The translations under genes were made by a program, and so were the position numbers. Below, in pieces: positions 9,892-52,836 of a stretch of 64,000 nucleotides of DNA. The stretch spans positions 6,062,509 to 6,126,508 of the forward strand of contig CM082586.2 in the NCBI GenBank assembly GCA_040954595.2, in the 5' to 3' direction. Below the pieces are notes generated by a model that was not told the origin of the DNA, made no database searches, and worked only from the letters and a program-made list of their open reading frames with translations. Within the stretch, counting starts at the first letter, position 1. Each line of letters begins with the position of its first letter. The DNA is from Balanoglossus misakiensis. Taxonomy: Eukaryota; Animalia; Hemichordata.

Positions 9892-12800
9892 ATGTTTCGT
9901 AGGCCAATTCTGACTTGGCTCTTCGTCCTTAGTTTCTGTCACGCGGGATTCTCGCAGTTCATCGACCCCCAGGAGGACCTCAACCCGAAAAGCAGCCCGC
10001 CACTCGACCTGGAATATGTAGACATCACACTCCCGTACTACGGCACGCTGCAGGGACTGAAGTTTCGACTGGTGACGCCAAAGTTGTCGCACTGGCGGGA
10101 AGAGACGTTCTGGGCGGAGCAGTTCTTAGGTATTCCCTACGCCAGACCGCCGTTAGGGGAATTCCGGTTCGAGCGGCCGGTCCACGCCGATCCCTGGTCG
10201 GGACTGTACAAAGCTACGTACCACCGCAACGCGTGTCCTCAGTACGACGACTACATCAAGAAAGCTTTGCCAGATTTCGACTCGAGAAAAATACAAGAGG
10301 ATTGCTTATATTTGAACGTATATCGTCCTTCGGTGAGTTGACATTGCCAAGTTTTAAATTTCCATTGTATTTGACGGAGGAAATATCCAATATTTCGTGA
10401 AACGCATTTCATTGCGTGTGAAATTCCAATGTGGTTGCCTCATCATGATATTGTTATTGTTTTATCTTGACGAGGATGTACGTGGGCGATGGTGTTGAGA
10501 ATTAGTGATTGTCAGATGTCAATGTGCAAACCGCCTTCAGAAGTTGGTCAGAAATACCTGCCGGTGTTATATCCTAGTATGGCAGACAGACAGAGAGACA
10601 GATAGACAGGCAGGCAGACAGACAGACAGACAGTAAAGCAAAGCAAAGCAAAACAAAGCAAAGCATGAATATGCCAGTCTCGTTTATAAATACGTTCTGT
10701 CTGTTTACTGGAATACTACTGACTTTGTGTAACACTGTTTTTCTCTACAAAAGAAATCCTCGTATGATCCTCAACTCCCTGTGATGGTATTCTTTCACGG
10801 CGGCGATTGGAATCATGGGACGGCCGAGATGTACAACGCCACCTCCTTGGCGGCCACCAAAGATGTTGTCGTGGTAACATTCAATTACCGACTTGGCGCG
10901 CTTGGTGAGTGTCTCGGTGTTAACTCTTCAGTGGCGAGTTGTTTTTTATCACAAAAATGGCCAAGTCATACTTGGACCACTGAGGAAAATATAAATATAT
11001 AAATATATCACTTTTTTGTAATTATTAAAATGTCTTTTTCACTTAACAGGGTTTCTCAGCACTGAAGATGAATACTCGCGTGGTAACTACGGTCTGTGGG
11101 ACCAGTTGGAAGCCCTCAAATGGGTGCAGGAGAATATCAAACATTTCGGCGGGAATAATAGAAGAGTGACGATATTTGGCGTCGGATCCGGTGCTGCCAG
11201 TGTTGGTTTGCTTCTCGTGTCGTCCTACACCACAGGTAACGTTACAGCGCCCCCATAGTATACCACTGTTACTGTCGAGCTCTGGTTTATTCTAAGGTTA
11301 TATTCACGGGCATTATTTTATATATGGGTACCACGCTCGCCATTTCAACCCAATGAAGGCATTTCAAGATTTCAAGTAATATTCGACAGAATTTACTACT
11401 TCTTTCGACTCGCATGGCCCAGACCATCTGAACGTTCTGGACGTTATCAGCATACATTATAAAGAGAAAATTTGAGTAGTGTAATCAAATTATGTGATCC
11501 CGTCTGATGAATCGTCTTAACTGGCATAGTTTCGCCTCCACTTGTCTTTTGAGCAGATTTGTTCCACAAGGCCATCCTACAAAGTGGCACGGCGGTGTCG
11601 CCGTTTGCGGTGATACCAGAGAACTACAGTCCACGGCAGTTCGCCAGGGAGCTAGGAGACTACCATAACTGTCCCATCACCTACTCATCCTACGAACTGG
11701 TGGAGTGTCTGAAATCGTTACCATTTACTAGTATCTACACGGTACCTGTCGAAGTAAGCACCGATAAGTATTATTTGACTTTTTGATTTTTTACGCTTAA
11801 TCAAACTTTAAACAAGAGAAGTGAGAGAGACAGAGAGACCGACGTAGAGAGAGACAGACGGACAAAGATAGCCTACGCAAATGCATGTTTAGTAGTGGCA
11901 GCTAACCTCAAAGCAAAACAACTGGGCGAATCTATTTGTTACCTCTAATAAACACACGCCTATATTTTCATGGACAGGGATGTCCGGATACTGGCGCATG
12001 GGCGCCCGTGGTGGACGGTCCTGGCAACAGTCGCTTCCTACAAGACTACCCGCTCAATTTGTTGGAAGCTGGCAAGTTTCAAGACGTCGATATTATCAAT
12101 GGGATCGTCAGAGATGAAAGGTCGTACATGCTGTGTAAGCTTTTTTCTTTGTTATTCTATCTGCCCGTTTCCTTGGGTACAATGCTGGTAGCTTTCTTGG
12201 CACTATGGTAGGCGAAGATGATCGAATTGACGCCAAATTGTCTCATTAGCTGAATCTGCAGAGGTATAAATATATGACGGCATCCCAGTCCCCCGATTGG
12301 CCAGTTTCTTTGTGACAGCAGGTGTGAGCGCTAAATGTATGCGTTATGTAACCACGGTCACGTGGTGTAAGATTTGAAATTAGGCTTGCCGAGATGCTAT
12401 TGGTTAACGCGGGATTCACGTCAGCTTTCTCATTATGTAATTGGATTTTTTTTGCAGCGGGCATCCCCGGCGTCCAGTACGGCGTGCAGCCCGAGTACTT
12501 CATTGACGGCGTGCGCGAATTAGTGGAGGACCGGCATTACTTCGGAACAGATATCCTGGCAAACGTGTCGCTTTACGAGTACACCAACTGGACGACCCCT
12601 TTCAACGAATCGTCAATCAGGGAACAGTACATAGATGTGAGTAAAACTCTTCACGCAGTTCACGTTTGATCGTGTCGATAGCAAACGCTTGCCATTCAAA
12701 TTGACAAGATCATTGTGTCAATGCATTATTTGGAAATCACAAGTAAAATTCAATTTTGTGATCTGTTTCTTCTTTCAGTTGCTCACTGACCGGGATTTCG

Positions 12801-15505: not shown

Positions 15506-15512
15506 AAAAAAA
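15506..15512 (-). terminator. RNA polymerase III oligo-T terminator of the tRNA-Phe gene
   Basis: T7 run on the minus strand (GTTTCTTTTTTT) 5 nt after the discriminator base. Confidence 0.8.
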
Positions 15513-15517
15513 GAAAC

Positions 15518-15621
15518 TGCCGAAACCCGGGATAGTTCTCCGAACTCGTGCGAGTTCGCCGGTTTGAACCAGGGACCTTTAGATCTTCAGTCTAACGCTC
15601 TCCCAACTGAGCTATTTCGGC
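15518..15621 (-). tRNA. tRNA-Phe-GAA: tRNA-Phe(GAA) with a 31-nt T-loop insertion (candidate non-canonical intron, position 58/59, 15533-15563)
   Basis: Minus strand reads GCCGAAATAGCTCAGTTGGGAGAGCGTTAGACTGAAGATCTAAAGGTCCCTGGTTCAA[ACCGGCGAACTCGCACGAGTTCGGAGAACTA]TCCCGGGTTTCGGCA. Without the bracket it is the standard 73-nt animal tRNA-Phe (A57 variant). Anticodon at 15586-15588; A box and B box (GTTCAAACC) intact. Confidence 0.93.
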
Positions 15622-15994: not shown

Positions 15995-18900
15995 ATGCGT
16001 AAGCCAGTAGTTGCTCTCTTCTTACTGGCGTTGATCTGTGCTGTCAGTGATGGAAAGAAGAAAAAGGGGCCAAAAGAAGTAAAAATCGAGATTATGGTAA
16101 GTTTATAATGCGCTTATGTTTATACACTGCACAGGTACGGCCGTATAGTCAGTAACTTGGGTTAAAGTTTTTGACACGAAGATAAACTTTAATGTTCAGT
16201 CGGATTAACTGACTTCTATAAATAAATTTGTAAAATGCCCGTGCTATACAAATCATCATGGTCAATAGTTCAACTTTCCCAACGTCTTTTTGAAGTCTTT
16301 CTTAACTTTTTTTTTCTGTCAAAGAAAATTAAACAGACCACCATATGTTGTCTAAAATTGTACCAACAACCAGGTATGCACTATCCATGGGTTGGCGCAA
16401 AGAAATTTCAAAAAATTCTCAAAATCGACTCAATTGAATAAAATGTCATGTTTTAGAGGGCCCGCTGCAACGGTCTTGTGATTAATATTGAACGGATATT
16501 CAGACTGCGCCCCGCATCACACACCACACGTCCTCATGTGTGAAGTATACAGTGTAATTGGATATCCTTGTCACAAAGTTGAGAGCAACGCCGCATTGCA
16601 TTTGCTCTGCCAGGCGTCAAGTTCGACCGCCACGTCACAGTTGCAGAATGATTTGAACATGTGTGTGTGTTTACCTCTGGCGACGAACCATATCAACTGA
16701 TGTGACTACCGACTCATCCTTCTGATTGATAAGTCAGCTGCTTATAACAGTGCCACTCCCATGGGACATTGGTCTGAGAGAGAGGGTTAAAATAAAATAT
16801 ATTGTGCATCTCTTTTAAGTTTTAAAAGTTTTTTGCATATACCTTGCTTGCACTGCTAGTTGACTTTTTCACATCATTAAAGGTGTCCATTGCATGTCTA
16901 TGATACTTTTACATACTACTCGCTTTACTGGTAAATAGCATATGGCACTATCATAATGAAGTCCATTGTTTTGTCTTTCATTGCGAATAGAGCAACAGTT
17001 GCACATGCTACATAGTAATTAGAGTAGCAACTAGAGTTGGTTGAGAACTGTTTTTACTCTCTCAAAGCCTTATGTTGCATGTCCTCAATGACAGGGGTGA
17101 GTGGAATTTAAGTTGTTAATGTTGGAGCACAGCCACTTAGAGCACCTCCTTTCACCAGAGCTCTGTCACCAGGGACATGCAATATAACTTTAGGACCTGC
17201 TGTGAAACTGAACAGAGTATCCCATCTCAGGTCAGGTTTAATTATTATAGACTCTCAAGGGTCTATAGGTTTACTTGACCATTATTGGCTTGGATGGTAA
17301 AGTGATCAATGATGTCCTCAGTGGTGTCCAGTCAAGAACACTCTAGTAACAAAATATTGTAATCCCGTTCAAAAATATTGTGCATTTGTCATATTCAGAA
17401 AAAAACCTGTTCAAATGTAGAACGTACAACCAGTATCAGTTCCCACAGAAGCTAAACTCCCTTGATTTATGAGCAGCTTTTTAAAATTGTATGAAGTCAC
17501 TACTTGCAGATAAAGTTTTACCATTATGAATTAATTATTCAGCCGTTCATAATCAGAATTGATAAATTATCAATGTCCATATGGACGTTTCTGGAGGGAC
17601 ACATGTGCCAACCGAGGGAAGATAATAAAATAATCAATATTGCCCCGTGGCTGGGTATAAAGCAAACAAAACAGGAAGAAGTCATGTTTTCTTGAATAAT
17701 TCAGAACCACTGTACTGTGATTATACTAGTTATCTTTACTTCTTACTCTGACAGGTCAATACCTGTACAAGTTTTTTCCAGTATTTGTATAAGCCTCAGG
17801 GATGAGATAAAATTAAGCATCGCGACCTGGTTTTATATTCAAACCCCATACGAAGACAGAATAATGGGTCTGAAATAGTATTGAACGGAGTAATGTGTTT
17901 TTTCTCTGTAACGGGTCACGCCAACCACCCAATTAGTTGACGTGAATACAATTATTCCAAAAATAAGTTGACTGATTCAAATACAGTCGGCCTGATGAGT
18001 TTTTTGAAGCTCCAATTCCCGTTGTTTTGGAAATTACTTCTATTTACATTTCACTTGAAAGCACCCATCTAGCATCTACCAGCTAAAAAATGAATGCAAT
18101 CGTTAATAAACCAAAAAGTGCTCAACATTAAACACATTGCTCAATCTCATTCTGAACATGGAAAACACATGTCTGACCTAAATTGTTAATTCATTTAAAA
18201 AGTGTCATAAAATGAGCTGTAAGGAAAACTTAACACAGAAACTTTGTGTTTGTTTTTTCCAATCATAATCTATCCCTTGCGTACAAGGCCCTGTGCTTTC
18301 ATAAAGTGCTATTTTATTCACCAGACACTGAACACACATTGTGTGAGATAAACCTGACTTTAATAAAGATATTTTCATCCTTTTGAAATTAGGCCCATAT
18401 CTAATCCTCATGTGCACAAAATGTATGGCTATCAATAAATTATGGGGGTAGTATCATATACAGGTGTATAATCCATATCCTAAGATAAGTCCTCTGGGTG
18501 TTGCTGTAGTTGGGTTCACATCAGAAAAATAACGCTCGCCCTAAACAGGTTTAGGTTTTAAACCAGCCTAAATGATGTGCACAAGATGTGTTGGACCAGA
18601 GCCAGACTAGCAAAGTCCTGGTATAGAATGTCCCCAAGCAAGCATCATACATAACCATGCTTCTTCTTTCTCTTGTTTTACAGGATGAAGTTAGTGATTG
18701 CACAGAAAGAGCTGAGGATGGAGACACATTACAAGTCCACTATACTGTAAGTTTTGGAAAAAAAATGTACAGTAGCTAGGGCAAGTAGGGAAACGCTAAT
18801 CTACTGATAAAACTATAGCACTGATAAAACGTGAGAGAATGTACCAGCTGTGTCTAAAACTCACTATCAGCCAAATAGCTTATAGTCATGCTACTAGGTT

Positions 18901-21583
18901 AGTTTAAAACACCCATACATTTATTAATGAATTTTGCAGTACATTGAATGAACCCATATTGCAGCGGTTTACTTACCAAAAATATGGTTTATAGACATAC
19001 GACAGGCCGGCTGCACAAATAATAGTGACAATTAGCCCATACTTGGCCGTTTTTTTAAATATAGTACATAACTTAAGAAATTTATTTATGTTTAATGCTC
19101 CATTAGCTGTAACTTGCGCCCAGCATTTTGCTTATCAACACAATATGTGTATAGTCAACATTGTTATTTATATGCAAAATTTGAATTCAAGTCCTGAGTA
19201 GAATTAATTTGTCAACAATAACAATGGCCGTTACGAACATACAAGCTAAGTTGTGGAGTACTGGGTATATTAAAATTCTGTTTGGAGTAGAGAAAGGAAT
19301 TGTATTGGAAATTGTATTTGATTCACAGAACAAAAATGCTGGAAATAAAGCCAAAGATTGTCCCTTTAATGGCTGACCACACTGTATTCGGTTTTTCTGA
19401 CCCAAGCTGAAAACTCTGACAATTTGATTTAAAAAAAGAAAAAAAACACACGTGGTGAGTGTGCTGATTACTACCTGTATATTTTACTTTCAATTTCACG
19501 ATGCTATTTTCACTCTCGACCATTGAAACCAGGGCTATAGTACATGCTCAAAAAATACTGGCATTTCATGGGATAAGAATAGCCACACACAAATCCCTCA
19601 CATGTCAGCCTCAGGCAGGGTTGTTACAACCTCCCAGGATTGTTTGTTTGGAAACCACCAGACTGTTTATTTCTCTCTGCCATTTCTTGCAGGGGAGGCT
19701 GGAGTCGACAGGTGAAGTATTCGACTCAAGCGACGGGAAGCGACCTTTCGAGTTTGTTATCGGGGCCAAACCCAAACAGGTCATTGAGGGATGGGATATC
19801 GGCTTGAAGGGAATGTGTGTCGGGTAAGCAAGTCCCTAGGACTTTCATCACATTTCAATTTCAATGACTTTCAGCACGTCAACTTTCAATGACTTTCATC
19901 ACATTTCAATGACTTTCATCACCTTTCAATGACTTTCACCACATTTCAATGACTTTCATCACTTTTCGGACAAACTGAAATTTACCAAAAAAAATCATAT
20001 TTGCTGTGTGTTACATTTTAATTTTTCGTGATCAACTCTATTTTTTTGTTTTGTGACCAATTCCCTTTGGCCAGATCATGTGATCAATACTCTCCAACAA
20101 GCAATCAACAATAGCAGATCTTGATTAATTACTTTGTCAGTTTCATCATAGCATTCCATCTTTTCACATTATAATGTTTATAACTAAAATTTTATAATGT
20201 GTTTTCTTTAACCTTACAGTACAATTTTTTTTGTCATTACAAATGTATTAAGCAAATTGTTTGGAATTTAATCAGGGATAACCATAGGTACATGTAACAC
20301 TTAGCAAAAGTCTTGGGATATTTATAACTTAGCTGTTGAGTGTTTGGCAGCAGAAGTTATGTCATATGTCAGCGATGAAATCAATTATCAGGTTTAAAGA
20401 ACCATTTACTCCTAAATGTAGTAGCTGTTATGACCTCAATATGCAGTAACAGGAGAGCCCATAACCCTTGAATGTGTATAAAAATAGTCAGTGTCTGTGT
20501 AGTGTACATGGGGTAATAGACTCGTCCAGGCCTGGATGACAGTCCCCAGAGATCTGACATGCTAACCTAATTTTCCGCACCGTGAGGTAATTTGCCTTGT
20601 TGTGTTTATGCTATGGAGTTTTAATACTAATACCAGTCGGTCTGCTAGTCAGCTGGAAGCTAGTTTGTGCAACATGTGGTGAATAAGAAACATGTATCCT
20701 GGATATACTAGGCCAACAATTCCACCCCCCCCCCCCCCCCCCCCCCTCCGCCTCCTCCCCTTCACGGCGTATTTTCTGTGGCGTTGTGTGAACTTCAGTG
20801 GTCAGTGGCCAACTCATGTTTCTAAAATTTCACAGAGAACGGAGACTTCTGGTCATACCTCCGGAATTTGCGTACGGAAAGAGAGGGAGTCCACCACAGA
20901 TACCACGTAAGTTGAAATGTGGAGATGTCTGCTCTTATTTAATAACCCTGTCACCACTATGGTTCAGTCCAGAACCCATTGTTTTCTATGGTAAAGTTGG
21001 ACCTCTAAAGAGGAAAGTGGGGGTGAAAGGGTTAAAATGGATGCTCCATTTAGACTGATAAGTGATCGTGTTATAGAACGCAGTAGCCTGTATGTGTGCA
21101 ACACTAACTGCCATTGTTATTGTGGACATAGTGAAATCTATTCTGGACTGGAGTACACATTTTGCCCAATACCAATGCTGACTATATGTATATAGGTTGT
21201 GGTAAAAAAGCTAAATACATAGCATTTTGTCATGCTTCAGTGATTTTAACAAGAAACTGCAGTAGATACACAAAAGAAAAAACATGCTGAAAACAGAGAG
21301 AAAAGTTACAGCTGATCTAAATGGATCTTTAAACAGAAAAGTTTTCTTTCTTTTATTTCTCCATTCAGCACATGCAACTCTGGAATTTGAAGCTTTCCTG
21401 ATCTCTGTGAAAAAACAGACGCTGCAAGAGAAAATCTTACCTCATGTCCAGTTCATATCAATTCCTGTGGCCGTCATTATATTCATATACTATTTATATG
21501 ATAAAATCAGAAAAGCTCCCTCAGAACAGGAAGTCAAAAAAGCTGAAAAAGTTAGCAAGAAAAATTCAAAGAAGAAAAAGTAA
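15995..21583 (+). CDS. FKBP11: FKBP-type peptidyl-prolyl isomerase, ER type-I membrane (FKBP11/FKBP19 ortholog), 193 aa
   Basis: Exons 15995-16096, 18684-18746, 19693-19823, 20836-20906, 21369-21583 (582 nt). Signal peptide MRKPVVALFLLALICAVSDG; FKBP domain [51 protein letters not shown]; TM helix; lysine-rich tail ending KKKK (dilysine ER retrieval). Confidence 0.93.
19840..19966. repeat. 20-bp minisatellite (GACTTTCATCACATTTCAAT), about 6 copies, just after the FKBP11 exon-3 donor
   Basis: Directly visible tandem copies. Confidence 0.85.
20725..20760. repeat. Poly-C tract (C22 plus C-rich tail); G-quadruplex-capable on the template strand
   Basis: Homopolymer visible about 90 nt upstream of FKBP11 exon 4. 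Confidence 0.8.
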
Positions 21584-22813: not shown

Positions 22814-23837
22814 TCACACTGCGTCTCCCACTAGGTACCATTTTATTTTGTTTCCTTTGTGTTCACAATAATAAAGACACACTGCGACCAGCACGAACAA
22901 AATCACGGAGAACGGTATGGCGAGGAACTGCAGTGCTTCGAAGTTGGGCGAAGGAGGATCTCGGGGAATCCAGTCACCGTTGGTGGCGCCCTTGACCACC
23001 TTCACCAGTTTGACGTCGAAAATGAGCGTCGAATTCGCAGGTACCAGAGGCGGCGAACCTTTGTGGCCGTAACCGAGAAACGGCGGAACAATAATACGCC
23101 TCGCCTCCCTGAATCAATAAAAAGAAGGAAGTTGATATAAAAGCAATAGACACAGTTCCAATAATAGTATGCATGTAGTTGGCTTAAACAGAGTGTTCGG
23201 TCAAAGTGAAAACACATTCGAAGAAATGTACTAGCATGCCATGTCAGTTCAGCCAAAGGGTGACGAAAATGGCCAACTTGAATAAGCCAAAGATACACAC
23301 GTTTAGATGCATGTAAAATCACTACTGGGAAAGTAGACAGACATATTAACCATACCCTGTACACATGTTCTTGACACCTCTGATCCAGCCTTTGATAAGT
23401 TCACCCTCTTCTTCGCCTATGACATATCCAAATGGTTCACCCCAGATATAGGACGCGTCGAAAACAGTCCCGTCGTCCAGTGTGCCCTGGAAAATATGCA
23501 TGCCGTCTAAATGTCAATTGTAATCCGACAGGTGCAATTAATCTAGGCCTCGTTCAGTACATGTACGTTTTCTCAGGAAAACCGAGCATTGTAAAAGTGG
23601 CTTGAATCAGTGTATATGTACCAGGCACGTTTACCTCTATTCAGAATACTACTGACTCAGCTGAGTTTATTGTACATATATGTAATGGATTAGGACATTT
23701 TAATACGTTGGCTATTATGGGTCATCAAAAGGCGTGCGCATTTCCACTTAGTGTCACTGAAAACGATGACTTACATTATATTCAAACATCACCGAGTCTC
23801 CCAGCGATGATGTGCGTGTGCAGTGACGTGGCTGGTG
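22814..23837 (-). CDS. FKBP11-like paralog A, exons 2-4 (FKBP domain, TM helix, short tail ending GDAV)
   Basis: Minus-strand exons 23837-23775 (HQPRHCTRTSSLGDSVMFEYN), 23486-23356 (GTLDDGTVFDAS...LIKGWIRGVKNMCTG) and 23108-22814 (EARRIIVPPFLGYG...NSTLIFDVKL...QFLAIPFSVILFVLVAVCLYYC...GDAV*). The 63-nt and 131-nt exon sizes and their phases match FKBP11. Confidence 0.93.
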
Positions 23838-26930: not shown

Positions 26931-27250
26931 GTCATCAAAAAATGATAATTTTTCGACTTTGAAAATTTTCAAAAAAATTTCATATTTGATAAAAAAATTA
27001 TGGGTTATAGCTCATGAAAATCACCATAAAATGACCATTTTTCGACATTACGAAATCTCAAAATTTCGTCGATTTTTGAAAAAAATCATGGGTTATAGCT
27101 CATGAAAATAATCAAAACATGACAAATTTTCGACTTTAAAATTTTTCAAAAATTCTTCATTTTTAATAAAAAAATCATGGGTTATAGCTCATGAAAATCA
27201 TCAAAAAATGACAATTTTTCGACTGTGAAAATTTTCAAAAATTCTTCATA
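26931..27250 (-). repeat. About 3.6 diverged copies of the 88-bp satellite in inverted orientation
   Basis: Units such as CATGGGTTATAGCTCATGAAAATCATCAAAAAATGACAATTTTTCGAC are reverse complements of the main array unit, with many substitutions. Confidence 0.9.
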
Positions 27251-30200
27251 TTCACAGTCGAAAAATTGTCATTTTTGGATGATTTTCATGGGCTATAACC
27301 CATGCTTTTTTCAAAAAAATGAAGAAATTTTGATATCTCGGAAAGTCGAAAAATTGTCATTTTTGGATGATTTTCATGGGCTATAACCCATGCTTTTTTC
27401 AAAAAAATGAAGAAATTTTGATATCTCGGAAAGTCGAAAAATTGTCATTTTTGGATGATTTTCATGGGCTATAACCCATGCTTTTTTCAAAAAAATGAAG
27501 AAATTTTGATATCTCGGAAAGTCGAAAAATTGTCATTTTTGGATGATTTTCATGGGCTATAACCCATGCTTTTTTCAAAAAAATGAAGAAATTTTGATAT
27601 CTCGGAAAGTCGAAAAATTGTCATTTTTGGATGATTTTCATGGGCTATAACCCATGCTTTTTTCAAAAAAATGAAGAAATTTTGATATCTCGGAAAGTCG
27701 AAAAATTGTCATTTTTGGATGATTTTCATGGGCTATAACCCATGCTTTTTTCAAAAAAATGAAGAAATTTTGATATCTCGGAAAGTCGAAAAATTGTCAT
27801 TTTTGGATGATTTTCATGGGCTATAACCCATGCTTTTTTCAAAAAAATGAAGAAATTTTGATGTCTCGGAAAGTCGAAAAATTGTCATTTTTGGATGATT
27901 TTCATGGGCTATAACCCATGCTTTTTTCAAAAAAATGAAGAAATTTTGATGTCTCGGAAAGTCGAAAAATTGTCATTTTTGGATGATTTTCATGGGCTAT
28001 AACCCATGCTTTTTTCAAAAAAATGAAGAAATTTTGATGTCTCGGAAAGTCGAAAAATTGTCATTTTTGGATGATTTTCATGGGCTATAACCCATGCTTT
28101 TTTTCAAAAAAATGAAGAAATTTTGATGTCTCGAAAAGTCGAAAAATTGTCATTTTTGGATGATTTTCATGGGCTATAACCCATGCTTTTTTCAAAAAAA
28201 TGAAGAAATTTTGATGTCTCGGAAAGTCGAAAAATTGTCATTTTTGGATGATTTTCATGGGCTATAACCCATGCTTTTTTCAAAAAAATGAAGAAATTTT
28301 GATATCTCGGAAAGTCGAAAAATTGTCATTTTTGGATGATTTTCATGGGCTATAACCCATGCTTTTTTCAAAAAAATGAAGAAATTTTGATATCTCGGAA
28401 AGTCGAAAAATTGTCATTTTTGGATGATTTTCATGGGCTATAACCCATGCTTTTTTCAAAAAAATGAAGAAATTTTGATATCTCGGAAAGTCGAAAAATT
28501 GTCATTTTTGGTTGATTTTCATGGGCTATAACCCATGCTTTTTTCAAAAAAATGAAGAAATTTTGATATCTCGGAAAGTCGAAAAATTGTCATTTTTGGT
28601 TGATTTTCATGGGCTATAACCCATGCTTTTTTCAAAAAAATGAAGAAATTTTGATATCTCGGAAAGTCGGAAAATTGTCATTTTTGGATGATTTTCATGG
28701 GCTATAACCCATGCTTTTTTCAAAAAAATGAAGAAATTTTGATATCTCGGAAAGTCGGAAAATTGTCATTTTTGGATGATTTTCATGGGCTATAACCCAT
28801 GCTTTTTTCAAAAAAATGAAGAAATTTTGATATCTCGGAAAGTCGGAAAATTGTCATTTTTGGATGATTTTCATGGGCTATAACCCATGCTTTTTTCAAA
28901 AAAATGAAGAAATTTTGATATCTCGGAAAGTCGGAAAATTGTCATTTTTGGATGATTTTCATGGGCTATAACCCATGCTTTTTTCAAAAAAATGAAGAAA
29001 TTTTGATATCTCGGAAAGTCGGAAAATTGTCATTTTTGGATGATTTTCATGGGCTATAACCCATGCTTTTTTCAAAAAAATGAAGAAATTTTGATATCTC
29101 GGAAAGTCGAAACATTGTCATTTTTGGATGATTTTCATGGGCTATAACCCATGCTTTTTTCAAAAAAATGAAGAAATTTTGATATCTCGGAAAGTCGAAA
29201 AATTGTCATTTTTGGATGATTTTCATGGGCTATAACCCATGCTTTTTTCAAAAAAATGAAGAAATTTTGATATCTCGGAAAGTCGAAAAATTGTCATTTT
29301 TGGATGATTTTCATGGGCTATAACCCATGCTTTTTTCAAAAAAATGAAGAAATTTTGATATCTCGGAAAGTCGAAAAATTGTCATTTTTGGATGACTTTC
29401 ATGGGCTATAACCCATGCTTTTTTCAAAAAAATGAAGAAATTTTGATATCTCGGAAAGTCGAAAAATTGTCATTTTTGGATGATTTTCATGGGCTATAAC
29501 CCATGCTTTTTTCAAAAAAATGAAGAAATTTTGATATCTCGGAAAGTCGAAAAATTGTCATTTTTGGTTGATTTTCATGGGCTATAACCCATGCTTTTTT
29601 CAAAAAAATGAAGAAATTTTGATATCTCGGAAAGTCGAAAAATTGTCATTTTTGGATGATTTTCATGGGCTATAACCCATGCTTTTTCAAAAAAATGAAG
29701 AAATTTTGATATCTCGGAAAGTCGGAAAATTGTCATTTTTGGATGATTTTCATGGGCTATAACCCATGCTTTTTTCAAAAAAATGAAGAAATTTTGATAT
29801 CTCGGAAAGTCGGAAAATTGTCATTTTTGGATGATTTTCATGGGCTATAACCCATGCTTTTTTCAAAAAAATGAAGAAATTTTGATATCTCGGAAAGTCG
29901 GAAAATTGTCATTTTTGGATGATTTTCATGGGCTATAACCCATGCTTTTTTCAAAAAAATGAAGAAATTTTGATATCTCGGAAAGTCGGAAAATTGTCAT
30001 TTTTGGATGATTTTCATGGGCTATAACCCATGCTTTTTTCAAAAAAATGAAGAAATTTTGATATCTCGGAAAGTCGGAAAATTGTCATTTTTGGATGATT
30101 TTCATGGGCTATAACCCATGCTTTTTTCAAAAAAATGAAGAAATTTTGATATCTCGGAAAGTCGGAAAATTGTCATTTTTGGATGATTTTCATGGGCTAT

Positions 30201-33200
30201 AACCCATGCTTTTTTCAAAAAAATGAAGAAATTTTGATATCTCGGAAAGTCGAAAAATTGTCATTTTTGGATGATTTTCATGGGCTATAACCCATGCTTT
30301 TTTCAAAAAAATGAAGAAATTTTGATATCTCGGAAAGTCGAAAAATTGTCATTTTTGGATGATTTTCATGGGCTATAACCCATGCTTTTTTCAAAAAAAT
30401 GAAGAAATTTTGATATCTCGGAAAGTCGAAAAATTGTCATTTTTGGATGATTTTCATGGGCTATAACCCATGCTTTTTTCAAAAAAATGAAGAAATTTTG
30501 ATATCTCGGAAAGTCGAAAAATTGTCATTTTTGGTTGATTTTCATGGGCTATAACCCATGCTTTTTTCAAAAAAATGAAGAAATTTTGATATCTCGGAAA
30601 GTCGAAAAATTGTCATTTTTGGATGATTTTCATGGGCTATAACCCATGCTTTTTTCAAAAAAATGAAGAAATTTTGATATCTCGGAAAGTCGAAAAATTG
30701 TCATTTTTGGATGATTTTCATGGGCTATAACCCATGCTTTTTTCAAAAAAATGAAGAAATTTTGATATCTCGGAAAGTCGAAAAATTGTCATTTTTGGAT
30801 GATTTTCATGGGCTATAACCCATGCTTTTTTCAAAAAAATGAAGAAATTTTGATATCTCGGAAAGTCGAAAAATTGTCATTTTTGGATGATTTTCATGGG
30901 CTATAACCCATGCTTTTTTCAAAAAAATGAAGAAATTTTGATATCTCGGAAAGTCGAAAAATTGTCATTTTTGGTTGATTTTCATGGGCTATAACCCATG
31001 CTTTTTTCAAAAAAATGAAGAAATTTTGATATCTCGGAAAGTCGAAAAATTGTCATTTTTGGATGATTTTCATGGGCTATAACCCATGCTTTTTTCAAAA
31101 AAATGAAGAAATTTTGATATCTCGGAAAGTCGAAAAATTGTCATTTTTGGATGATTTTCATGGGCTATAACCCATGCTTTTTTCAAAAAAATGAAGAAAT
31201 TTTGATATCTCGGAAAGTCGAAAAATTGTCATTTTTGGATGATTTTCATGGGCTATAACCCATGCTTTTTTCAAAAAAATGAAGAAATTTTGATATCTCG
31301 GAAAGTCGAAAAATTGTCATTTTTGGGTGATTTTCATGGGCTATAACCCATGCTTTTTTCAAAAAAATGAAGAAATTTTGATATCTCGGAAAGTCGAAAA
31401 ATTGTCATTTTTGGGTGATTTTCATGGGCTATAACCCATGCTTTTTTCAAAAAAATGAAGAAATTTTGATATCTCGGAAAGTCGAAAAATTGTCATTTTT
31501 GGGTGATTTTCATGGGCTATAACCCATGCTTTTTTCAAAAAAATGAAGAAATTTTGATATCTCGGAAAGTCGAAAAATTGTCATTTTTGGGTGATTTTCA
31601 TGGGCTATAACCCATGCTTTTTTCAAAAAAATGAAGAAATTTTGATATCTCGGAAAGTCGAAAAATTGTCATTTTTGGGTGATTTTCATGGGCTATAACC
31701 CATGCTTTTTTCAAAAAAATGAAGAAATTTTGATATCTCGGAAAGTCGAAAAATTGTCATTTTTGGGTGATTTTCATGGGCTATAACCCATGCTTTTTTC
31801 AAAAAAATGAAGAAATTTTGATATCTCGGAAAGTCGAAAAATTGTCATTTTTGGATGATTTTCATGGGCTATAACCCATGCTTTTTTCAAAAAAATGAAG
31901 AAATTTTGATATCTCGGAAAGTCGAAAAATTGTCATTTTTGGATGATTTTCATGGGCTATAACCCATGCTTTTTTCAAAAAAATGAAGAAATTTTGATAT
32001 CTCGGAAAGTCGAAAAATTGTCATTTTTGGATGATTTTCATGGGCTATAACCCATGCTTTTTTCAAAAAAATGAAGAAATTTTGATATCTCGGAAAGTCG
32101 AAAAATTGTCATTTTTGGATGATTTTCATGGGCTATAACCCATGCTTTTTTCAAAAAAATGAAGAAATTTTGATATCTCGGAAAGTCGAAAAATTGTCAT
32201 TTTTGGATGATTTTCATGGGCTATAACCCATGCTTTTTTCAAAAAAAAGAAGAAATTTTGATATCTCGGAAAGTCGAAAAATTGTCATTTTTGGTTGATT
32301 TTCATGGGCTATAACCCATGCTTTTTTCGAAAAAATGAAGAAATTTTGATATCTCGGAAAGTCGAAAAATTGTCATTTTTGGATGATTTTCATGGGCTAT
32401 AACCCATGCTTTTTTCAAAAAAATGAAGAAATTTTGATATCTCGGAAAGTCGAAAAATTGTCATTTTTGGATGATTTTCATGGGCTATAACCCATGCTTT
32501 TTTCAAAAAAATGAAGAAATTTTGATATCTCGGAAAGTCGAAAAATTGTCATTTTTGGTTGATTTTCATGGGCTATAACCCATGCTTTTTTCAAAAAAAT
32601 GAAGAAATTTTGATATCTCGGAAAGTCGGAAAATTGTCATTTTTGGATGATTTTCATGGGCTATAACCCATGCTTTTTTCAAAAAAATGAAGAAATTTTG
32701 ATATCTCGGAAAGTCGGAAAATTGTCATTTTTGGATGATTTTCATGGGCTATAACCCATGCTTTTTTCAAAAAAATGAAGAAATTTTGATATCTCGGAAA
32801 GTCGGAAAATTGTCATTTTTGGATGATTTTCATGGGCTATAACCCATGCTTTTTTCAAAAAAATGAAGAAATTTTGATATCTCGGAAAGTCGGAAAATTG
32901 TCATTTTTGGATGATTTTCATGGGCTATAACCCATGCTTTTTTCAAAAAAATGAAGAAATTTTGATATCTCGGAAAGTCGGAAAATTGTCATTTTTGGAT
33001 GATTTTCATGGGCTATAACCCATGCTTTTTTCAAAAAAATGAAGAAATTTTGATATCTCGGAAAGTCGGAAAATTGTCATTTTTGGATGATTTTCATGGG
33101 CTATAACCCATGCTTTTTTCAAAAAAATGAAGAAATTTTGATATCTCGGAAAGTCGAAAAATTGTCATTTTTGGATGATTTTCATGGGCTATAACCCATG

Positions 33201-36200
33201 CTTTTTTCAAAAAAATGAAGAAATTTTGATATCTCGGAAAGTCGAAAAATTGTCATTTTTGGATGATTTTCATGGGCTATAACCCATGCTTTTTTCAAAA
33301 AAATGAAGAAATTTTGATATCTCGGAAAGTCGAAAAATTGTCATTTTTGGATGATTTTCATGGGCTATAACCCATGCTTTTTTCAAAAAAATGAAGAAAT
33401 TTTGATATCTCGGAAAGTCGAAAAATTGTCATTTTTGGTTGATTTTCATGGGCTATAACCCATGCTTTTTTCAAAAAAATGAAGAAATTTTGATATCTCG
33501 GAAAGTCGAAAAATTGTCATTTTTGGATGATTTTCATGGGCTATAACCCATGCTTTTTTCAAAAAAATGAAGAAATTTTGATATCTCGGAAAGTCGAAAA
33601 ATTGTCATTTTTGGATGATTTTCATGGGCTATAACCCATGCTTTTTTCAAAAAAATGAAGAAATTTTGATATCTCGGAAAGTCGAAAAATTGTCATTTTT
33701 GGATGATTTTCATGGGCTATAACCCATGCTTTTTTCAAAAAAATGAAGAAATTTTGATATCTCGGAAAGTCGAAAAATTGTCATTTTTGGATGATTTTCA
33801 TGGGCTATAACCCATGCTTTTTTCAAAAAAATGAAGAAATTTTGATATCTCGGAAAGTCGAAAAATTGTCATTTTTGGGTGATTTTCATGGGCTATAACC
33901 CATGCTTTTTTCAAAAAAATGAAGAAATTTTGATATCTCGGAAAGTCGAAAAATTGTCATTTTTGGGTGATTTTCATGGGCTATAACCCATGCTTTTTTC
34001 AAAAAAATGAAGAAATTTTGATATCTCGGAAAGTCGAAAAATTGTCATTTTTGGGTGATTTTCATGGGCTATAACCCATGCTTTTTTCAAAAAAATGAAG
34101 AAATTTTGATATCTCGGAAAGTCGAAAAATTGTCATTTTTGGGTGATTTTCATGGGCTATAACCCATGCTTTTTTCAAAAAAATGAAGAAATTTTGATAT
34201 CTCGGAAAGTCGAAAAATTGTCATTTTTGGGTGATTTTCATGGGCTATAACCCATGCTTTTTTCAAAAAAATGAAGAAATTTTGATATCTCGGAAAGTCG
34301 AAAAATTGTCATTTTTGGGTGATTTTCATGGGCTATAACCCATGCTTTTTTCAAAAAAATGAAGAAATTTTGATATCTCGGAAAGTCGAAAAATTGTCAT
34401 TTTTGGGTGATTTTCATGGGCTATAACCCATGCTTTTTTCAAAAAAATGAAGAAATTTTGATATCTCGGAAAGTCGAAAAATTGTCATTTTTGGGTGATT
34501 TTCATGGGCTATAACCCATGCTTTTTTCAAAAAAATGAAGAAATTTTGATATCTCGGAAAGTCGAAAAATTGTTCATTTTTGGATGATTTTCATGGGCTA
34601 TAACCCATGCTTTTTTCAAAAAAATGAAGAAATTTTGATATCTCGGAAAGTCGAAAAATTGTCATTTTTGGATGATTTTCATGGGCTATAACCCATGCTT
34701 TTTTCAAAAAAATGAAGAAATTTTGATATCTCGGAAAGTCGAAAAATTGTCATTTTGGATGATTTTCATGGGCTATAACCCATGCTTTTTTCAAAAAAAT
34801 GAAGAAATTTTGATATCTCGGAAAGTCGAAAAATTGTCATTTTTGGATGATTTTCATGGGCTATAACCCATGCTTTTTTCAAAAAAATGAAGAAATTTTG
34901 ATATCTCGGAAAGTCGAAAAATTGTCATTTTTGGATGATTTTCATGGGCTATAACCCATGCTTTTTTCAAAAAAATGAAGAAATTTTGATATCTCGGAAA
35001 GTCGAAAAATTGTCATTTTTGGGTGATTTTCATGGGCTATAACCCATGCTTTTTTCAAAAAAATGAAGAAATTTTGATATCTCGGAAAGTCGAAAATTGT
35101 CATTTTTGGGTGATTTTCATGGGCTATAACCCATGCTTTTTTCAAAAAAATGAAGAAATTTTGATATCTCGGAAAGTCGAAAATTGTCATTTTTGGTTGA
35201 TTTTCATGGGCTATAACCCATGCTTTTTTCAAAAAAATGAAGAAATTTTGATATCTCGGAAAGTCGAAAAATTGTCATTTTTGGGTGATTTTCATGGGCT
35301 ATAACCCATGCTTTTTTCAAAAAAATGAAGAAATTTTGATATCTCGGAAAGTCGAAAAATTGTCATTTTTGGGTGATTTTCATGGGCTATAACCCATGCT
35401 TTTTTCAAAAAAATGAAGAAATTTTGATATCTCGGAAAGTCGAAAAATTGTCATTTTTGGGTGATTTTCATGGGCTATAACCCATGCTTTTTTCAAAAAA
35501 ATGAAGAAATTTTGATATCTCGGAAAGTCGAAAAATTGTCATTTTTGGGTGATTTTCATGGGCTATAACCCATGCTTTTTTCAAAATAATGAAGAAATTT
35601 TGATATCTCGGAAAGTCGAAAAATTGTCATTTTTGGGTGATTTTCATGGGCTATAACCCATGCTTTTTCAAAAAAATGAAGAAATTTTGATATCTCGGAA
35701 AGTCGAAAAATTGTCATTTTTGGGTGATTTTCATGGGCTATAACCCATGCTTTTTTCAAAAAAATGAAGAAATTTTGATATCTCGGAAAGTCGAAAAATT
35801 GTCATTTTTGGGTGATTTTCATGGGCTATAACCCATGCTTTTTTCAAAAAAATGAAGAAATTTTGATATCTCGGAAAGTCGAAAAATTGTCATTTTTGGG
35901 TGATTTTCATGGGCTATAACCCATGCTTTTTTCAAAAAAATGAAGAAATTTTGATATCTCGGAAAGTCGAAAAATTGTCATTTTTGGGTGATTTTCATGG
36001 GCTATAACCCATGCTTTTTTCAAAAAAAATGAAGGAAATTTTGATATCTCGGAAAGTCGAAAAATTGTCATTTTTGGGTGATTTTCATGGGCTATAACCC
36101 ATGCTTTTTTCAAAAAAATGAAGAAATTTTGATATCTCGGAAAGTCGAAAAATTGTCATTTTTGGGTGATTTTCATGGGCTATAACCCATGCTTTTTTCA

Positions 36201-39200
36201 AAAAAATGAAGAAATTTTGATATCTCGGAAAGTCGAAAAATTGTCATTTTTGGGTGATTTTCATGGGCTATAACCCATGCTTTTTTCAAAAAAATGAAGA
36301 AATTTTGATATCTCGGAAAGTCGAAAAATTGTCATTTTTGGGTGATTTTCATGGGCTATAACCCATGCTTTTTTCAAAAAAATGAAGAAATTTTGATATC
36401 TCGGAAAGTCGAAGAATTGTCATTTTTGGGTGATTTTCATGGGCTATAACCCATGCTTTTTTCAAAAAAATGAAGAAATTTTGATATCTCGGAAAGTCGA
36501 AAAATTGTCATTTTTGGGTGATTTTCATGGGCTATAACCCATGCTTTTTTCAAAAAAATGAAGAAATTTTGATATCTCGGAAAGTCGAAAAATTGTCATT
36601 TTTGGGTGATTTTCATGGGCTATAACCCATGCTTTTTTCAAAAAAATGAAGAAATTTTGATATCTCGGAAAGTCGAAAAATTGTCATTTTTGGATGATTT
36701 TCATGGGCTATAACCCATGCTTTTTTCAAAAAAATGAAGAAATTTTGATATCTCGGAAAGTCGAAAAATTGTCATTTTTGGATGATTTTTCATGGGCTAT
36801 AACCCATGCTTTTTTCAAAAAAATGAAGAAATTTTGATATCTCGGAAAGTCGAAAAATTGTCATTTTTGGATGATTTTCATGGGCTATAACCCATGCTTT
36901 TTTCAAAAAAATGAAGAAATTTTGATATCTCGGAAAGTCGAAAAATTGTCATTTTTGGGTGATTTTCATGGGCTATAACCCTCGAGATGTGTCTTTTTTC
37001 AAAAAAAAAATGAAGAATTTTTGATATCTCGGAAAGTCGAAAAATTGTCATTTTTGGGTGATTTTCATGGGCTATATTCAAAAAAATGAAGAAATTTTGA
37101 TATCTCGGAAAGTCGAAAAATTGTCATTTTTGGATGATTTTCATGGGCTATAACCCATGCTTTTTTCAAAAAAATGAAGAAATTTTGATATCTCGGAAAG
37201 TCGAAAAATTGTCATTTTTGGATGATTTTCATGGGCTATAACCCATGCTTTTTTCAAAAAAATGAAGAAATTTTGATATCTCGGAAAGTCGAAAAATTGT
37301 CATTTTTGGATGATTTTCATGGGCTATAACCCATGCTTTTTTCAAAAAAATGAAGAAATTTTGATATCTCGGAAAGTCGAAAAATTGTCATTTTTGGATG
37401 ATTTTCATGGGCTATAACCCATGCTTTTTTCAAAAAAATGAAGAAATTTTGATATCTCGGAAAGTCGAAAAATTGTCATTTTTGGATGATTTTCATGGGC
37501 TATAACCCATGCTTTTTTCAAAAAAATGAAGAAATTTTGATATCTCGGAAAGTCGAAAAATTGTCATTTTTGGATGATTTTCATGGGCTATAACCCATGC
37601 TTTTTTCAAAAAAATGAAGAAATTTTGATATCTCGGAAAGTCGAAAAATTGTCATTTTTGGATGATTTTCATGGGCTATAACCCATGCTTTTTTCAAAAA
37701 AATGAAGAAATTTTGATATCTCGGAAAGTCGAAAAATTGTCATTTTTGGATGATTTTCATGGGCTATAACCCATGCTTTTTTCAAAAAAATGAAGAAATT
37801 TTGATATCTCGGAAAGTCGAAAAATTGTCATTTTTGGATGATTTTCATGGGCTATAACCCATGCTTTTTTCAAAAAAATGAAGAAATTTTGATATCACGG
37901 AAAGTCGAAAAATTGTCATTTTTGGATGATTTTCATGGGCTATAACCCATGCTTTTTTCAAAAAAATGAAGAAATTTTGATATCTCGGAAAGTCGAAAAA
38001 TTGTCATTTTTGGATGATTTTCATGGGCTATAACCCATGCTTTTTTCAAAAAAATGAAGAAATTTTGATATCTCGGAAAGTCGAAAAATTGTCATTTTTG
38101 GATGATTTTCATGGGCTATAACCCATGCTTTTTTCAAAAAAATAAAGAAATTTTGATATCTCGGAAAGTCGAAAAATTGTCATTTTTGGATGATTTTCAT
38201 GGGCTATAACCCATGCTTTTTTCAAAAAAATGAAGAAATTTTGATATCTCGGAAAGTCGAAAAATTGTCATTTTTGGATGATTTTCATGGGCTATAACCC
38301 ATGCTTTTTTCAAAAAAATGAAGAAATTTTGATATCTCGGAAAGTCGAAAAATTGTCATTTTTGGATGATTTTCATGGGCTATAACCCATGCTTTTTTCA
38401 AAAAAATGAAGAAATTTTGATATCTCGGAAAGTCGAAAAATTGTCATTTTTGGATGATTTTCATGGGCTATATCCCATGCTTTTTTCAAAAAAATGAAGA
38501 AATTTTGATATCTCGGAAAGTCGAAAAATTGTCATTTTTGGATGATTTTCATGGGCTATAACCCATGCTTTTTTCAAAAAAATGAAGAAATTTTGATATC
38601 TCGGAAAGTCGAAAAATTGTCATTTTTGGGTGATTTTCATGGGCTATAACCCATGCTTTTTTCAAAAAAATGAAGAAATTTTGATATCTCGGAAAGTCGA
38701 AAAATTGTCATTTTTGGGTGATTTTCATGGGCTATAACCCATGCTTTTTTCAAAAAAATGAAGAAATTTTGATATCTCGGAAAGTCGAAAAATTGTCATT
38801 TTTGGGTGATTTTCATGGGCTATAACCCATGCTTTTTTCAAAAAAATGAAGAAATTTTGATATCTCGGAAAGTCGAAAAATTGTCATTTTTGGGTGATTT
38901 TCATGGGCTATAACCCATGCTTTTTTCAAAAAAATGAAGAAATTTTGATATCTCGGAAAGTCGAAAAATTGTCATTTTTGGGTGATTTTCATGGGCTATA
39001 ACCCATGCTTTTTTCAAAAAAATGAAGAAATTTTGATATCTCGGAAAGTCGAAAAATTGTCATTTTTGGGTGATTTTCATGGGCTATAACCCATGCTTTT
39101 TTCAAAATAATGAAGAAATTTTGATATCTCGGAAAGTCGAAAAATTGTCATTTTTGGGTGATTTTCATCGGCTATAACCCATGCTTTTTTCAAAAAAATG

Positions 39201-42200
39201 AAGAAATTTTGATATCTCGGAAAGTCGAAAAATTGTCATTTTTGGGTGATTTTCATGGGCTATAACCCATGCTTTTTTCAAAAAAATGAAGAAATTTTGA
39301 TATCTCGGAAAGTCGAAAAATTGTCATTTTTGGGTGATTTTCATGGGCTATAACCCATGCTTTTTCGGAAAGTCGAAAAATTGTCATTTTTGGATGATTT
39401 TCATGGGCTATAACCCATGCTTTTTTCAAAAAAATGAAGAAATTTTGATATTCGGAAAGTCGAAAAATTGTCATTTTTGGATGATTTTCATGGGCTATAA
39501 CCCATGCTTTTTTCAAAAAAATGAAGAAATTTTGATATCTCGGAAAGTCGAAAAATTGTCATTTTTGGATGATTTTCATGGGCTATAACCCATGCTTTTT
39601 TCAAAAAAAATGAAGAAATTTTGATATCTCGGAAAGTCGAAAAATTGTCACTTTTGGATGATTTTCATGGGCTATAACCCATGCTTTTTTCAAAAAAATG
39701 AAGAAATTTTGATATCTCGGAAAGTCGAAAAATTGTCATTTTTGGATGATTTTCATGGGCTATAACCCATGCTTTTTTCAAATAAATGAAGAAATTTTGA
39801 TATCTCGGAAAGTCGAAAAATTGTCATTTTTGGATGATTTTCATGGGCTATAACCCATGCTTTTTTCAAAAAAATGAAGAAATTTTGATATCTCGGAAAG
39901 TCGAAAAATTGTCATTTTTGGATGATTTTCATGGGCTATAACCCATGCTTTTTTCAAAAAAATGAAGAAATTTTGATATCTCGGAAAGTCGAAAAATTGT
40001 CATTTTTGGATGATTTTCATGGGCTATAACCCATGCTTTTTTCAAAAAAATGAAGAAATTTTGATATCTCGGAAAGTCGAAAAATTGTCATTTTTGGATG
40101 ATTTTCATGGGCTATAACCCATGCTTTTTTAAAAAAAATGAAGAAATTTTGATATCTCGGAATGTCGAAAAATTGTCATTTTTGGATGATTTTCATGGGC
40201 TATAACCCATGCTTTTTTCAAAAAAATGAAGAAATTTTGATATCTCGGAAAGTCGAAAAATTGTCATTTTTGGATGATTTTCATGGGCTATAACCCATGC
40301 TTTTTTCAAAAAAATGAAGAAATTTTGATATCTCGGAAAGTCGAAAAATTGTCATTTTTGGATGATTTTCATGGGCTATAACCCATGCTTTTTTCAAAAA
40401 AATGAAGAAATTTTGATATCTCGGAAAGTCGAAAAATTGTCATTTTTGGATGATTTTCATGGGCTATAACCCATGCTTTTTTCAAAAAAATGAAGAAATT
40501 TTGATATCTCGGAAAGTCGAAAAATTGTCATTTTTGGATGATTTTCATGGGCTATAACCCATGCTTTTTTCAAAAAAATGGAGAAATTTTGATATCTCGG
40601 AAAGTCGAAAAATTGTCATTTTTGTATGATTTTCATGGGCTATAACCCATGCTTTTTTCAAAAAAATGAAGAAATTTTGATATCTCGGAAAGTCGAAAAA
40701 TTGTCATTTTTGGATGATTTTCATGGGCTATAACCCATGCTTTTTTCAAAAAAATGAAGAAATTTTGATATCTCGGAAAGTCGAAAAATTGTCATTTTTG
40801 GATGATTTTCATGGGCCATGCTTTTTTAAAAAAAATGAAGAAATTTTGATATCTCGGAAAGTCGAAAAATTGTCATTTTTGGGTGATTTTCATGGGCTAT
40901 AACCCATGCTTTTTCAAAAAAATGAAGAAATTTTGATATCTCGGAAAGTCGAAAAATTGTCATTTTTTGGTGATTTTCATGGGCTATAACCCATGCTTTT
41001 TTCAAAAAAATGAAGAAATTTTGATATCTCGGAAAGTCGAAAAATTGTCATTTTTGGGTGATTTTCATGGGCTATAACCCATGCTTTTTTCAAAATAATG
41101 AAGAAATTTTGATATCTCGGAAAGTCGAAAAATTGTCATTTTTGGGTGATTTTCATGGGCTATAACCCATGCTTTTTTCAAAAAAATGAAGAAATTTTGA
41201 TATCTCGGAAAGTCGAAAAATTGTCATTTTTGGGTGATTTTCATGGGCTATAACCCATGCTTTTTTCAAAAAAATGAAGAAATTTTGATATCTCGGAAAG
41301 TCGAAAAATTGTCATTTTTGGGTGATTTTCATGGGCTATAACCCATGCTTTTTTCAAAAAAATGAAGAAATTTTGATATCTCGGAAAGTCGAAAAATTGT
41401 CATTTTTGGGTGATTTTCATGTGCTATAACCCATGCTTTTTCGGAAAGTCGAAAAATTGTCATTTTTGGATGATTTTCATGGGCTATAACCCATGCTTTT
41501 TTCAAAAAAATGAAGAAATTTTGATATCTCGGAAAGTCGAAAAATTGTCATTTTTGGATGATTTTCATGGGCTATAACCCATGCTTTTTTCAAAAAAATG
41601 AAGAAATTTTGATATCTCGGAAAGTCGAAAAATTGTCATTTTTGGATGATTTTCATGGGCTATAACCCATGCTTTTTTCAAAAAAATGAAGAAATTTTGA
41701 TATCTCGGAAAGTCGAAAAATTGTCATTTTTGGATGATTTTCATGGGCTATAACCCATGCTTTTTTCAAAAAAATGAAGAAATTTTGATATCTCGGAAAG
41801 TCGAAAAATTGTCATTTTTGGATGATTTTCATGGGCTATAACCCATGCTTTTTTCAAAAAAATGAAGAAATTTTGATATCTCGGAATGTCGAAAAATTGT
41901 CATTTTTGGATGATTTTCATGGGCTATAACCCATGCTTTTTTCAAAAAAATGAAGAAATTTTGATATCTCGGAAAGTCGAAAAATTGTCATTTTTGGATG
42001 ATTTTCATGGGCTATAACCCATGCTTTTTTCAAAAAAATGAAGAAATTTTGATATCTCGGAAAGTCGAAAAATTGTCATTTTTGGATGATTTTCATGGGC
42101 TATAACCCATGCTTTTTTCAAAAAAATGAAGAAATTTTGATATCTCGGAAAGTCGAAAAATTGTCATTTTTGGATGATTTTCATGGGCTATAACCCATGC

Positions 42201-47817: not shown

Positions 47818-47963
47818 ATCTCTAATTCCAAGTAATTGATTTTGGCGCGCTCCTTGTACTTTGGAAGGTAAACGCCTTTATCCAGATATCAGGACAAATG
47901 CAGCGCTCTCTTCAGCGCCAAAACGGAGCAGCTGATCAAATCTTACATTTGATTAGTGCGAGT
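47818..47963 (-). other. Paralogous conserved intronic element, copy 1 (inverted match to 61869-62016)
   Basis: Hand alignment: 2 substitutions plus one 2-bp indel over 146 bp. Confidence 0.9.
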
Positions 47964-52428: not shown

Positions 52429-52469
52429 GCATGAGCTTTCGGGAACATGTAGTCCCCTTCTTCAGATGC
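52429..52469 (-). ncRNA. Minimal type-I hammerhead ribozyme (Penelope-type), copy on minus strand
   Basis: Exact reverse complement of 52837-52877. Confidence 0.75.
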
Positions 52470-52836
52470 ACTCGTGGAATGAACAGAGAAACAGAGAATC
52501 ATGGGGTATTCAAAGTAGAAAATATGCGCAGGACCAGTTGCATCAGAAAACAAAAGAAGGGGTGGGTGTGAAAATTGAACAATGGAAATGTTAATGGGTG
52601 CAAATGTGTAAATGGGGTAGTGGACTGCAGAAAACTGAGGGCTGTCACGGTAAAGTCAGTCCTCAGTTTTCTGCAGTCCACTACCCCATTTAACATTTGC
52701 ATTCCCATTAACATTTCCATTGATCAATTTTCACACCCACTCCTTCTTTTGTTTTCCGAGGCACCTGGTCCTGCACATATTTTCTACTTTGAATACCCCA
52801 TGATTCTCTGTTTCTCTGACGGTTCATTCCACGAGT

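Follow-up and report, generated by a model that had tools for sequence, protein, structure and literature searches.

T-loop introns occur in nuclear tRNA genes of Cyanidioschyzon merolae, a red alga, where they account for four of 42 introns, for example intron 3 of tRNA-Ile(UAU) and an intron of tRNA-Gly(CCC) (PMC3728597). In the account given there, these introns are excised, with splicing shown by RT-PCR and many genes affected; the motif of the Ile T-loop intron is a strict hBHBh' form of the bulge-helix-bulge (BHB), the endonuclease has no visible Sen15 and homologs of the TFIIIC box-binding proteins are reported as not found (PMC3728597). In archaea, the pre-tRNA-Cys(GCA) of ARMAN-2 carries an hBH intron at 59/60 that was cut in vitro (PMC3239211). 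Excision is also described for T-arm introns of the Guillardia theta nucleomorph, most introns of which lack a BHB; the T-arm introns named have a length of 3 nt and belong to a reduced algal genome (PMC4090602, PMC3728597). In metazoans, introns are described as essentially absent from tRNAs other than Tyr-GUA, Ile-UAU, Leu-CAA and Arg-UCU (PMC12530127), and the four-subunit animal-type TSEN is stated in a 2023 review to remove introns at 37/38 only (PMC10485636). Recognition also differs: the (ab)2 and e2 endonucleases of archaea go by local structure, and TSEN of animals goes by the mature domain. Archaea also have tRNA introns at 58/59, as in Pyrobaculum.

Here, we analyse a tRNA-Phe(GAA) gene of the hemichordate Balanoglossus misakiensis that carries extra bases at 58/59, together with a second gene interrupted at the same site. 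This is a recurring structure in animal-type tRNA-Phe genes (n = 2) that is previously unreported as far as the open-licence literature goes, in which our search turned up no description of a tRNA intron in the T-loop for any animal. Like the T-loop introns of C. merolae, the feature is a short T-loop insert in a nuclear eukaryotic tRNA gene, with a 4-bp exon-intron helix and a cloverleaf restored upon removal (PMC3728597); it differs in its animal host, in having one closing pair only and in being a candidate for splicing. With archaeal BHB and bulge-helix-loop introns it shares the T-loop site, the 4-bp central helix, a 3-nt 3' bulge, a loop at the 5' site and a hairpin body, but it lies at 58/59 rather than at 59/60 as in ARMAN-2 (PMC3239211), and owing to this position the T-stem cannot act as a flanking helix. 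The nucleomorph introns of G. theta are similar in being eukaryotic T-arm inserts of poor BHB character (PMC4090602, PMC3728597). The likeness to metazoan 37/38 introns concerns the length range, the bulge-helix-loop build, the pairing of the third-last intron base to the exon and the likely ligation by RtcB, whereas the arm and the isotype are different (PMC12530127, PMC10275265); the mature-domain ruler of canonical metazoan splicing cannot place cuts at 58/59. By analogy, the feature appears to behave like the non-canonical, endonuclease-spliced tRNA introns of archaea and red algae.

Anatomy of the tRNA-Phe(GAA) gene

The gene occupies 104 nt on the minus strand (15518-15621) of the window, i.e. 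the whole 64-kb stretch of DNA analysed here, which holds one tRNA-Phe(GAA) copy and no N. Its 5' exon (nt 1-58; 15564-15621) contains an A box (tRNA nt 8-19; 15603-15614) that is the same as in an intronless animal-type gene (L127) and the anticodon GAA (15586-15588) in an uninterrupted anticodon loop, so that a canonical eukaryotic intron at 37/38 is absent. The extra 31 bases (15533-15563) lie at 58/59, and the 3' exon (nt 59-73; 15518-15532) is followed by a T7 run (15506-15512), the likely Pol III terminator. The B box (15561-15569) fits GWTCRANNC, its end being completed by the first three insert bases. Every cloverleaf stem pairs, and the window gene thus has all the parts of a functional Pol III tRNA gene. 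Once the insert is removed, a canonical 73-nt tRNA with the T-loop UUCAAUC is restored, placements at 57/58 and 58/59 being equivalent; 72 of its 73 bases are the same as in the intronless animal-type genes of contigs L127 and L130, with A57 instead of G57 as the sole mismatch. These results agree with the earlier note on this DNA, which had described an undecayed tRNA-Phe(GAA) body with a 31-nt T-loop insert whose removal regenerates exactly this loop.

Within the insert, a 5' linker (15559-15563) is followed by a hairpin of 7 bp with a 4-nt loop (15541-15558; z -1.9), as had been claimed, and by the end GAAC-UA (15533-15538). Pairing of the linker with C50-G53 would give a pseudo T-arm that competes with the true one, while GAAC is the proposed partner of G53-C56 and UA would supply two bases of the proposed 3' bulge. 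The target-site duplication at the flanks of the insert is at most 1 base. An Rfam search placed the insert in no known family and matched the gene in its 5' part only (model positions 8-63). ARAGORN, including its intron search, called no credible gene in the window and missed the tRNA-Phe. As described for tRNAscan-SE, non-canonical introns are sought in archaeal mode and the eukaryotic settings consider canonical introns only (PMC8450103). A tRNA-derived SINE or a decayed pseudogene was considered and rejected: the gene has a full 3' exon and terminator, is undecayed and is present as one copy in 64 kb.

Genomic context

The tRNA gene sits between a carboxylesterase gene and an FKBP gene. 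The protein genes of the window are intron-rich and comprise an M28 peptidase, the carboxylesterase and two FKBP genes. A carboxylesterase exon (9892-10338) matches proteins of Ptychodera flava (78% identity), Glandiceps talaboti (69%) and Saccoglossus kowalevskii (65%), the next matches being at most 51% over shorter spans. This ranking places the source of the DNA among the enteropneust hemichordates, probably in a ptychoderid different from P. flava. The two FKBP-type genes (about 15996-21582 on the plus strand and 22817-23490 on the minus strand) are arranged tail to tail, each apparently with a hydrophobic stretch at its end, and the plus-strand gene starts about 375 bp from the 5' end of the tRNA gene, in divergent orientation.

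Repeats make up another part of the window. A satellite of 17.7 kb (27256-44942) consists of about 200 copies of an 88-bp unit with 95-98% matches, and it is adjoined at 26932-27249 by a divergent form of the repeat that has an 89-bp unit and runs the other way; many of the 88-bp units are miscalled as mt-tRNA-Leu by ARAGORN in mitochondrial mode. We also observed a MITE-like fold-back element of 544 bp (52381-52924), 92% identical to its own reverse complement, and a dispersed 215-bp repeat at 47751-47963 and 61869-62072, in opposite orientations and 88% identical.

A second insert-bearing locus

A metagenome-collection scan, in which the query was the window tRNA with 6-36 extra T-loop bases, returned one contig, L001; intronless genes were left out by design, and the scan therefore gives no denominator. 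The gene on this contig (702-808) consists of a 58-nt exon (702-759) and a 15-nt exon (794-808) that are the same as those of the window gene at 73 of 73 bases, separated by a 34-nt insert (760-793) at the same base position, 58/59. To judge from its tRNA body, this gene is probably of the animal type. Its flanks have 32% GC and are not alignable with those of the window. The earlier note held that an insert unique to one copy would speak against an intron; here, a separate locus carries a different insert at the same site. The note's claim of intact A and B boxes with a T7 terminator is true of the window gene but does not extend to L001, in which the B box lacks its last C.

Both inserts have a common build: the first base is A, followed by a linker of 5-6 nt, a hairpin (8 bp with z -3.9 in L001) and a GAAY-UA end. 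Nevertheless, 17 of the 36 columns in the alignment of the inserts show a difference, compared with none of the 73 exon positions (Fisher p 3e-10). At the insert ends, six of seven bases are conserved (p 0.04 for a background of 45% and 0.003 for one of 28%), and the sole change turns the G53-C pair of the window into G53-U with the pair kept. The similarity of the whole inserts exceeds that of shuffles (p 0.01), and that of the insert cores does not do so significantly (p 0.24). When the seven hairpin pairs were compared in a hand-set register, four were the same, two had changed on both sides and one on one side, and none was broken. Because of the p value of 0.24 for the core, this covariation is suggestive only, and the two hairpins may, but need not, descend from a common one. 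From these comparisons, we infer that the exons are selected as tRNA-Phe and that the insert site is nonrandom, whether the inserts are homologous or have arisen twice.

Two further observations concern the surroundings of the L001 gene. A normal tRNA-Arg(ACG) gene lies upstream (393-467), head to head with the insert-bearing tRNA-Phe and separated from it by 234 bases; the window has no such neighbour. The trailers of the two genes (window 15508-15517 and L001 809-817) start alike, with TTTC and then a T run, which may reflect shared ancestry or chance in T-rich terminators.

Survey of other loci

Among nine other eukaryote-type tRNA-Phe loci, found on viral and metagenome-assembled genome (MAG) contigs, none has an insert (0/9), and the feature is thus not general. 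Scans for insert-bearing genes gave no match in viral contigs or in prokaryote genome contigs, and the plasmid scan gave weak bacterial tRNA matches only. As a control, a loose, isotype-free pattern matched at least 120 loci in viral contigs, and none of the 120 listed forms a tRNA across the junction after removal. Neither insert, that of the window or that of L001, has a second copy in the window or the fetched loci.

Eight contigs filed under bacterial MAGs (L123-L130) carry eukaryote-type tRNA genes, several of them clustered, and are likely to be eukaryotic contamination of reference genomes. Introns at 37/38 occur in two of these, in Glu-CTC of L123 and Arg-TCT of L127. The sequence of L126 reads the same on both strands at 1-662, around two tRNA pairs, which is probably an assembly artefact. 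The tRNA-Phe of L128 has mismatched acceptor strands and an upstream region in common with L127; this contig is possibly a chimeric assembly.

The candidate splice motif

The exon strand of the proposed central helix, G53-U54-U55-C56 (15566-15569), can form four of four Watson-Crick pairs with GAAC of the window insert, as the earlier note had claimed, and three Watson-Crick pairs and one G-U with GAAU of L001, the proposed cuts lying 2 nt past each strand. The covariation that the note had proposed to look for in this helix is seen to the extent of one G-C to G-U change in a helix that pairs in both loci (n = 2). In shuffled inserts, a 4-bp helix at 58/59 arose by chance with a probability of 0.008 (Watson-Crick) or 0.042 (G-U allowed) for the window and 0.023 (G-U allowed) for L001; for the helix together with a closing pair at a random site, the chance was 0.002-0.010 for the window and 0.001-0.010 over both genes. 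Four of the 108 start and length placements per gene allow a four-pair helix, and only 58/59 leads to a 73-nt tRNA; it does so in both genes, and a closing pair is available there. Placement at 59/60 was rejected, as it offers no central helix for a 73-nt product. IRE1-type cleavage follows the pattern CNG/CNG, which neither junction fits, and sites of this type were also rejected.

The two ends of the helix differ. At the 3' end, G52-C60 is able to close a 3-nt bulge. At the 5' end there is no closing pair (C stands opposite A), and the cut would fall in a 7x2 internal loop in the window; in both genes the 5' site lies in an open strand of 7-8 nt and the first h' pair is absent. The exon helix h consists of G52-C60 alone, U51 and C61 being unpaired with each other. 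Thus, neither h nor h' reaches two contiguous pairs, and the two 3-nt bulges of a strict hBHBh' are not formed. The Marck-Grosjean rule, in the coding described in bioRxiv 10.64898/2026.10.13.758758, treats four central pairs without a two-pair outer helix as not BHB-like, and our motif is 'not BHB-like' when this rule is applied. Furthermore, both genes allow an alternative in which the last two insert bases pair with G52 and U51; the helix then extends to 6 bp (U51-C56) and the 3' bulge is lost.

The motif fold lies 5-10 kcal/mol above the fold with an intact T-stem. At 37 °C, the central helix of the window gene is predicted with a probability of 0.04 and its G52-C60 pair with one of 0.0004 (0.03-0.06 and 0.0004-0.002, respectively, across both genes), in a model that ignores modifications, tertiary contacts and enzyme binding and is unbenchmarked on known introns. 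The pseudo T-arm between the insert start and C50-G53 is predicted at 0.67-0.78 in the window and at 0.05 in L001. An archaeal-style BHB with two 3-nt bulges, as proposed in the earlier note, is therefore retained in part: the 4-bp helix and the single pair that can close the 3' bulge stand, whereas the 5' bulge and BHB status under the Marck-Grosjean rule do not, nor is the motif the predicted ground-state fold. Since it fails two defining features, we do not file the feature as a BHB intron.

Discussion

The T-loop insert is a real structure that recurs at one site and has probably been selected. We consider it fairly likely that it is spliced by one route or another. The best reading, to which we give an even chance, is that of a T-loop intron for which TSEN cuts at a weak bulge-helix-loop and RtcB joins the exons; for a TSEN-type activity as the cutting enzyme, the chance appears to be even at best. 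The algal T-loop and T-arm introns are precedents for such removal in eukaryotes (PMC3728597, PMC4090602). The intron reading is further favoured by two loci of different collections that share the site, 73 exon bases and the insert build while their flanks are unalignable and their inserts have diverged, and by the 58/59 register being the only one to restore a 73-nt tRNA in both genes. In the proposed mechanism, transcription by Pol III would proceed from the A and B boxes as far as the T run. The T-stem would then open transiently and leave G53-C56 free to pair with GAAY, the 5' cut would be made after A58 in the open loop and the 3' cut after UA, before U59, in the 3-nt bulge closed by G52-C60, and the exons would be ligated by RtcB. 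The tRNA elbow is read by the ribosome, RNase P and RNase Z (PMC4810234), which agrees with removal of the insert.

Several points count against it. The motif is weak, with no two-pair flanking helix, a cost of 5-10 kcal/mol and the 6-bp alternative; the sample is n = 2, with 0/9 at other loci, and the L001 B box is imperfect. As to the position, the T-arm site closed by the T-stem itself is 59/60, and 58/59 is not among the T-arm positions named in the corresponding section of PMC4090602. The enzyme is the main difficulty, since the 37/38-only rule (PMC10485636) counts against TSEN, as does the very poor cleavage reported for a mini-BHB with TSEN purified from S. pombe (PMC8707768). Eukaryotic enzymes are reportedly able, following Fabbri in 1998, to cut a strict BHB in vitro.

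An alternative that we regard as unlikely, but as the strongest of those considered, is that the insert is retained. The T-stem and a U54-A58 pentaloop would be kept and the hairpin extruded directly behind A58; the product would be a variant tRNA-Phe, either working or regulatory, whose elbow is enlarged. When the T-arm is folded together with the insert, the predicted minimum of either gene has the T-stem intact and the hairpin extruded, the insert follows exactly the fifth residue of the T-loop pentaloop motif as defined in PMC4810234, and identical exons with a kept hairpin would be accounted for without TSEN breaking its rule. It leaves unexplained why the insert end is complementary to G53-C56, a pairing that would compete with the elbow. 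Moreover, each of the three ribosomal sites makes contact with the elbow, as do RNase P and RNase Z (PMC4810234), and the window insert start is predicted to beat the true T-stem (0.67-0.78 versus 0.09-0.12).

Splicing without the intact four-subunit TSEN seems rather doubtful. A catalytic sub-complex or another endonuclease might read the 6-bp helix and the hairpin, followed by RtcB. Such a route would suit a motif that is poor by BHB rules and yet recurs in its site and ends; a Sen2-Sen34 sub-complex has been proposed for the ectopic introns of C. merolae, and nucleomorph introns without a BHB are described as excised by an unknown route (PMC4090602, PMC3728597). On the other hand, the +2/+2 spacing of the cuts from the 4-bp helix is the rule of the tRNA-splicing endonuclease itself, and the IRE1-type pattern has no match at either junction.

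That the genes are dead copies is improbable. An old or recurrent insertion, as a fold-back replication error or an element footprint, would have struck one of many tRNA-Phe genes, whose exons would look fresh because they are young or gene-converted. When eukaryotic tRNA genes have insertions in the D- or T-arm, these are usually single copies and taken as pseudogenes (PMC4090602), the insert end is almost the reverse complement of nt 51-56, the outcome expected from a fold-back error, and the L001 B box is imperfect. Nevertheless, exons without a single difference in 73 bases stand next to a strongly diverged insert and unalignable flanks, the target-site duplication does not exceed 1 base and neither insert recurs in the window or the fetched loci. 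Dada transposons target tRNA nt 8-13 or the anticodon arm with 6-7 bp duplications (PMC8869645), and an insertion or footprint of this kind was rejected for a 58/59 site with so short a duplication. The earlier preference for a maintained T-loop intron over a random pseudogene insertion accordingly gains independent backing from the L001 locus, which has the same site, identical exons and a different insert that again contains a hairpin and shares the end bases; an independent locus of this kind argues against a lone pseudogene. An assembly or sequencing artefact is hardly credible, given an independent contig from another collection with a different insert at the same base and a window free of N.

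For the intron reading, the wider proposal is that some invertebrates have a conserved, protein-spliced T-loop intron in tRNA-Phe(GAA), invisible to eukaryotic tRNA finders and removed either by TSEN, in a mode that does not depend on the mature domain, or by an endonuclease so far undescribed. This would be the first non-canonical animal tRNA intron, and on the sequences at hand the proposal could fall either way. If the insert is spliced, the 37/38-only rule stated for the animal four-subunit TSEN (PMC10485636) would be broken, an enzyme tied to human pontocerebellar hypoplasia would have a second recognition mode and invertebrate tRNA sets would be under-annotated. If instead the RNA works unspliced, the elbow of a cytosolic tRNA would accommodate an insert of 31-34 nt, which would be equally unexpected.
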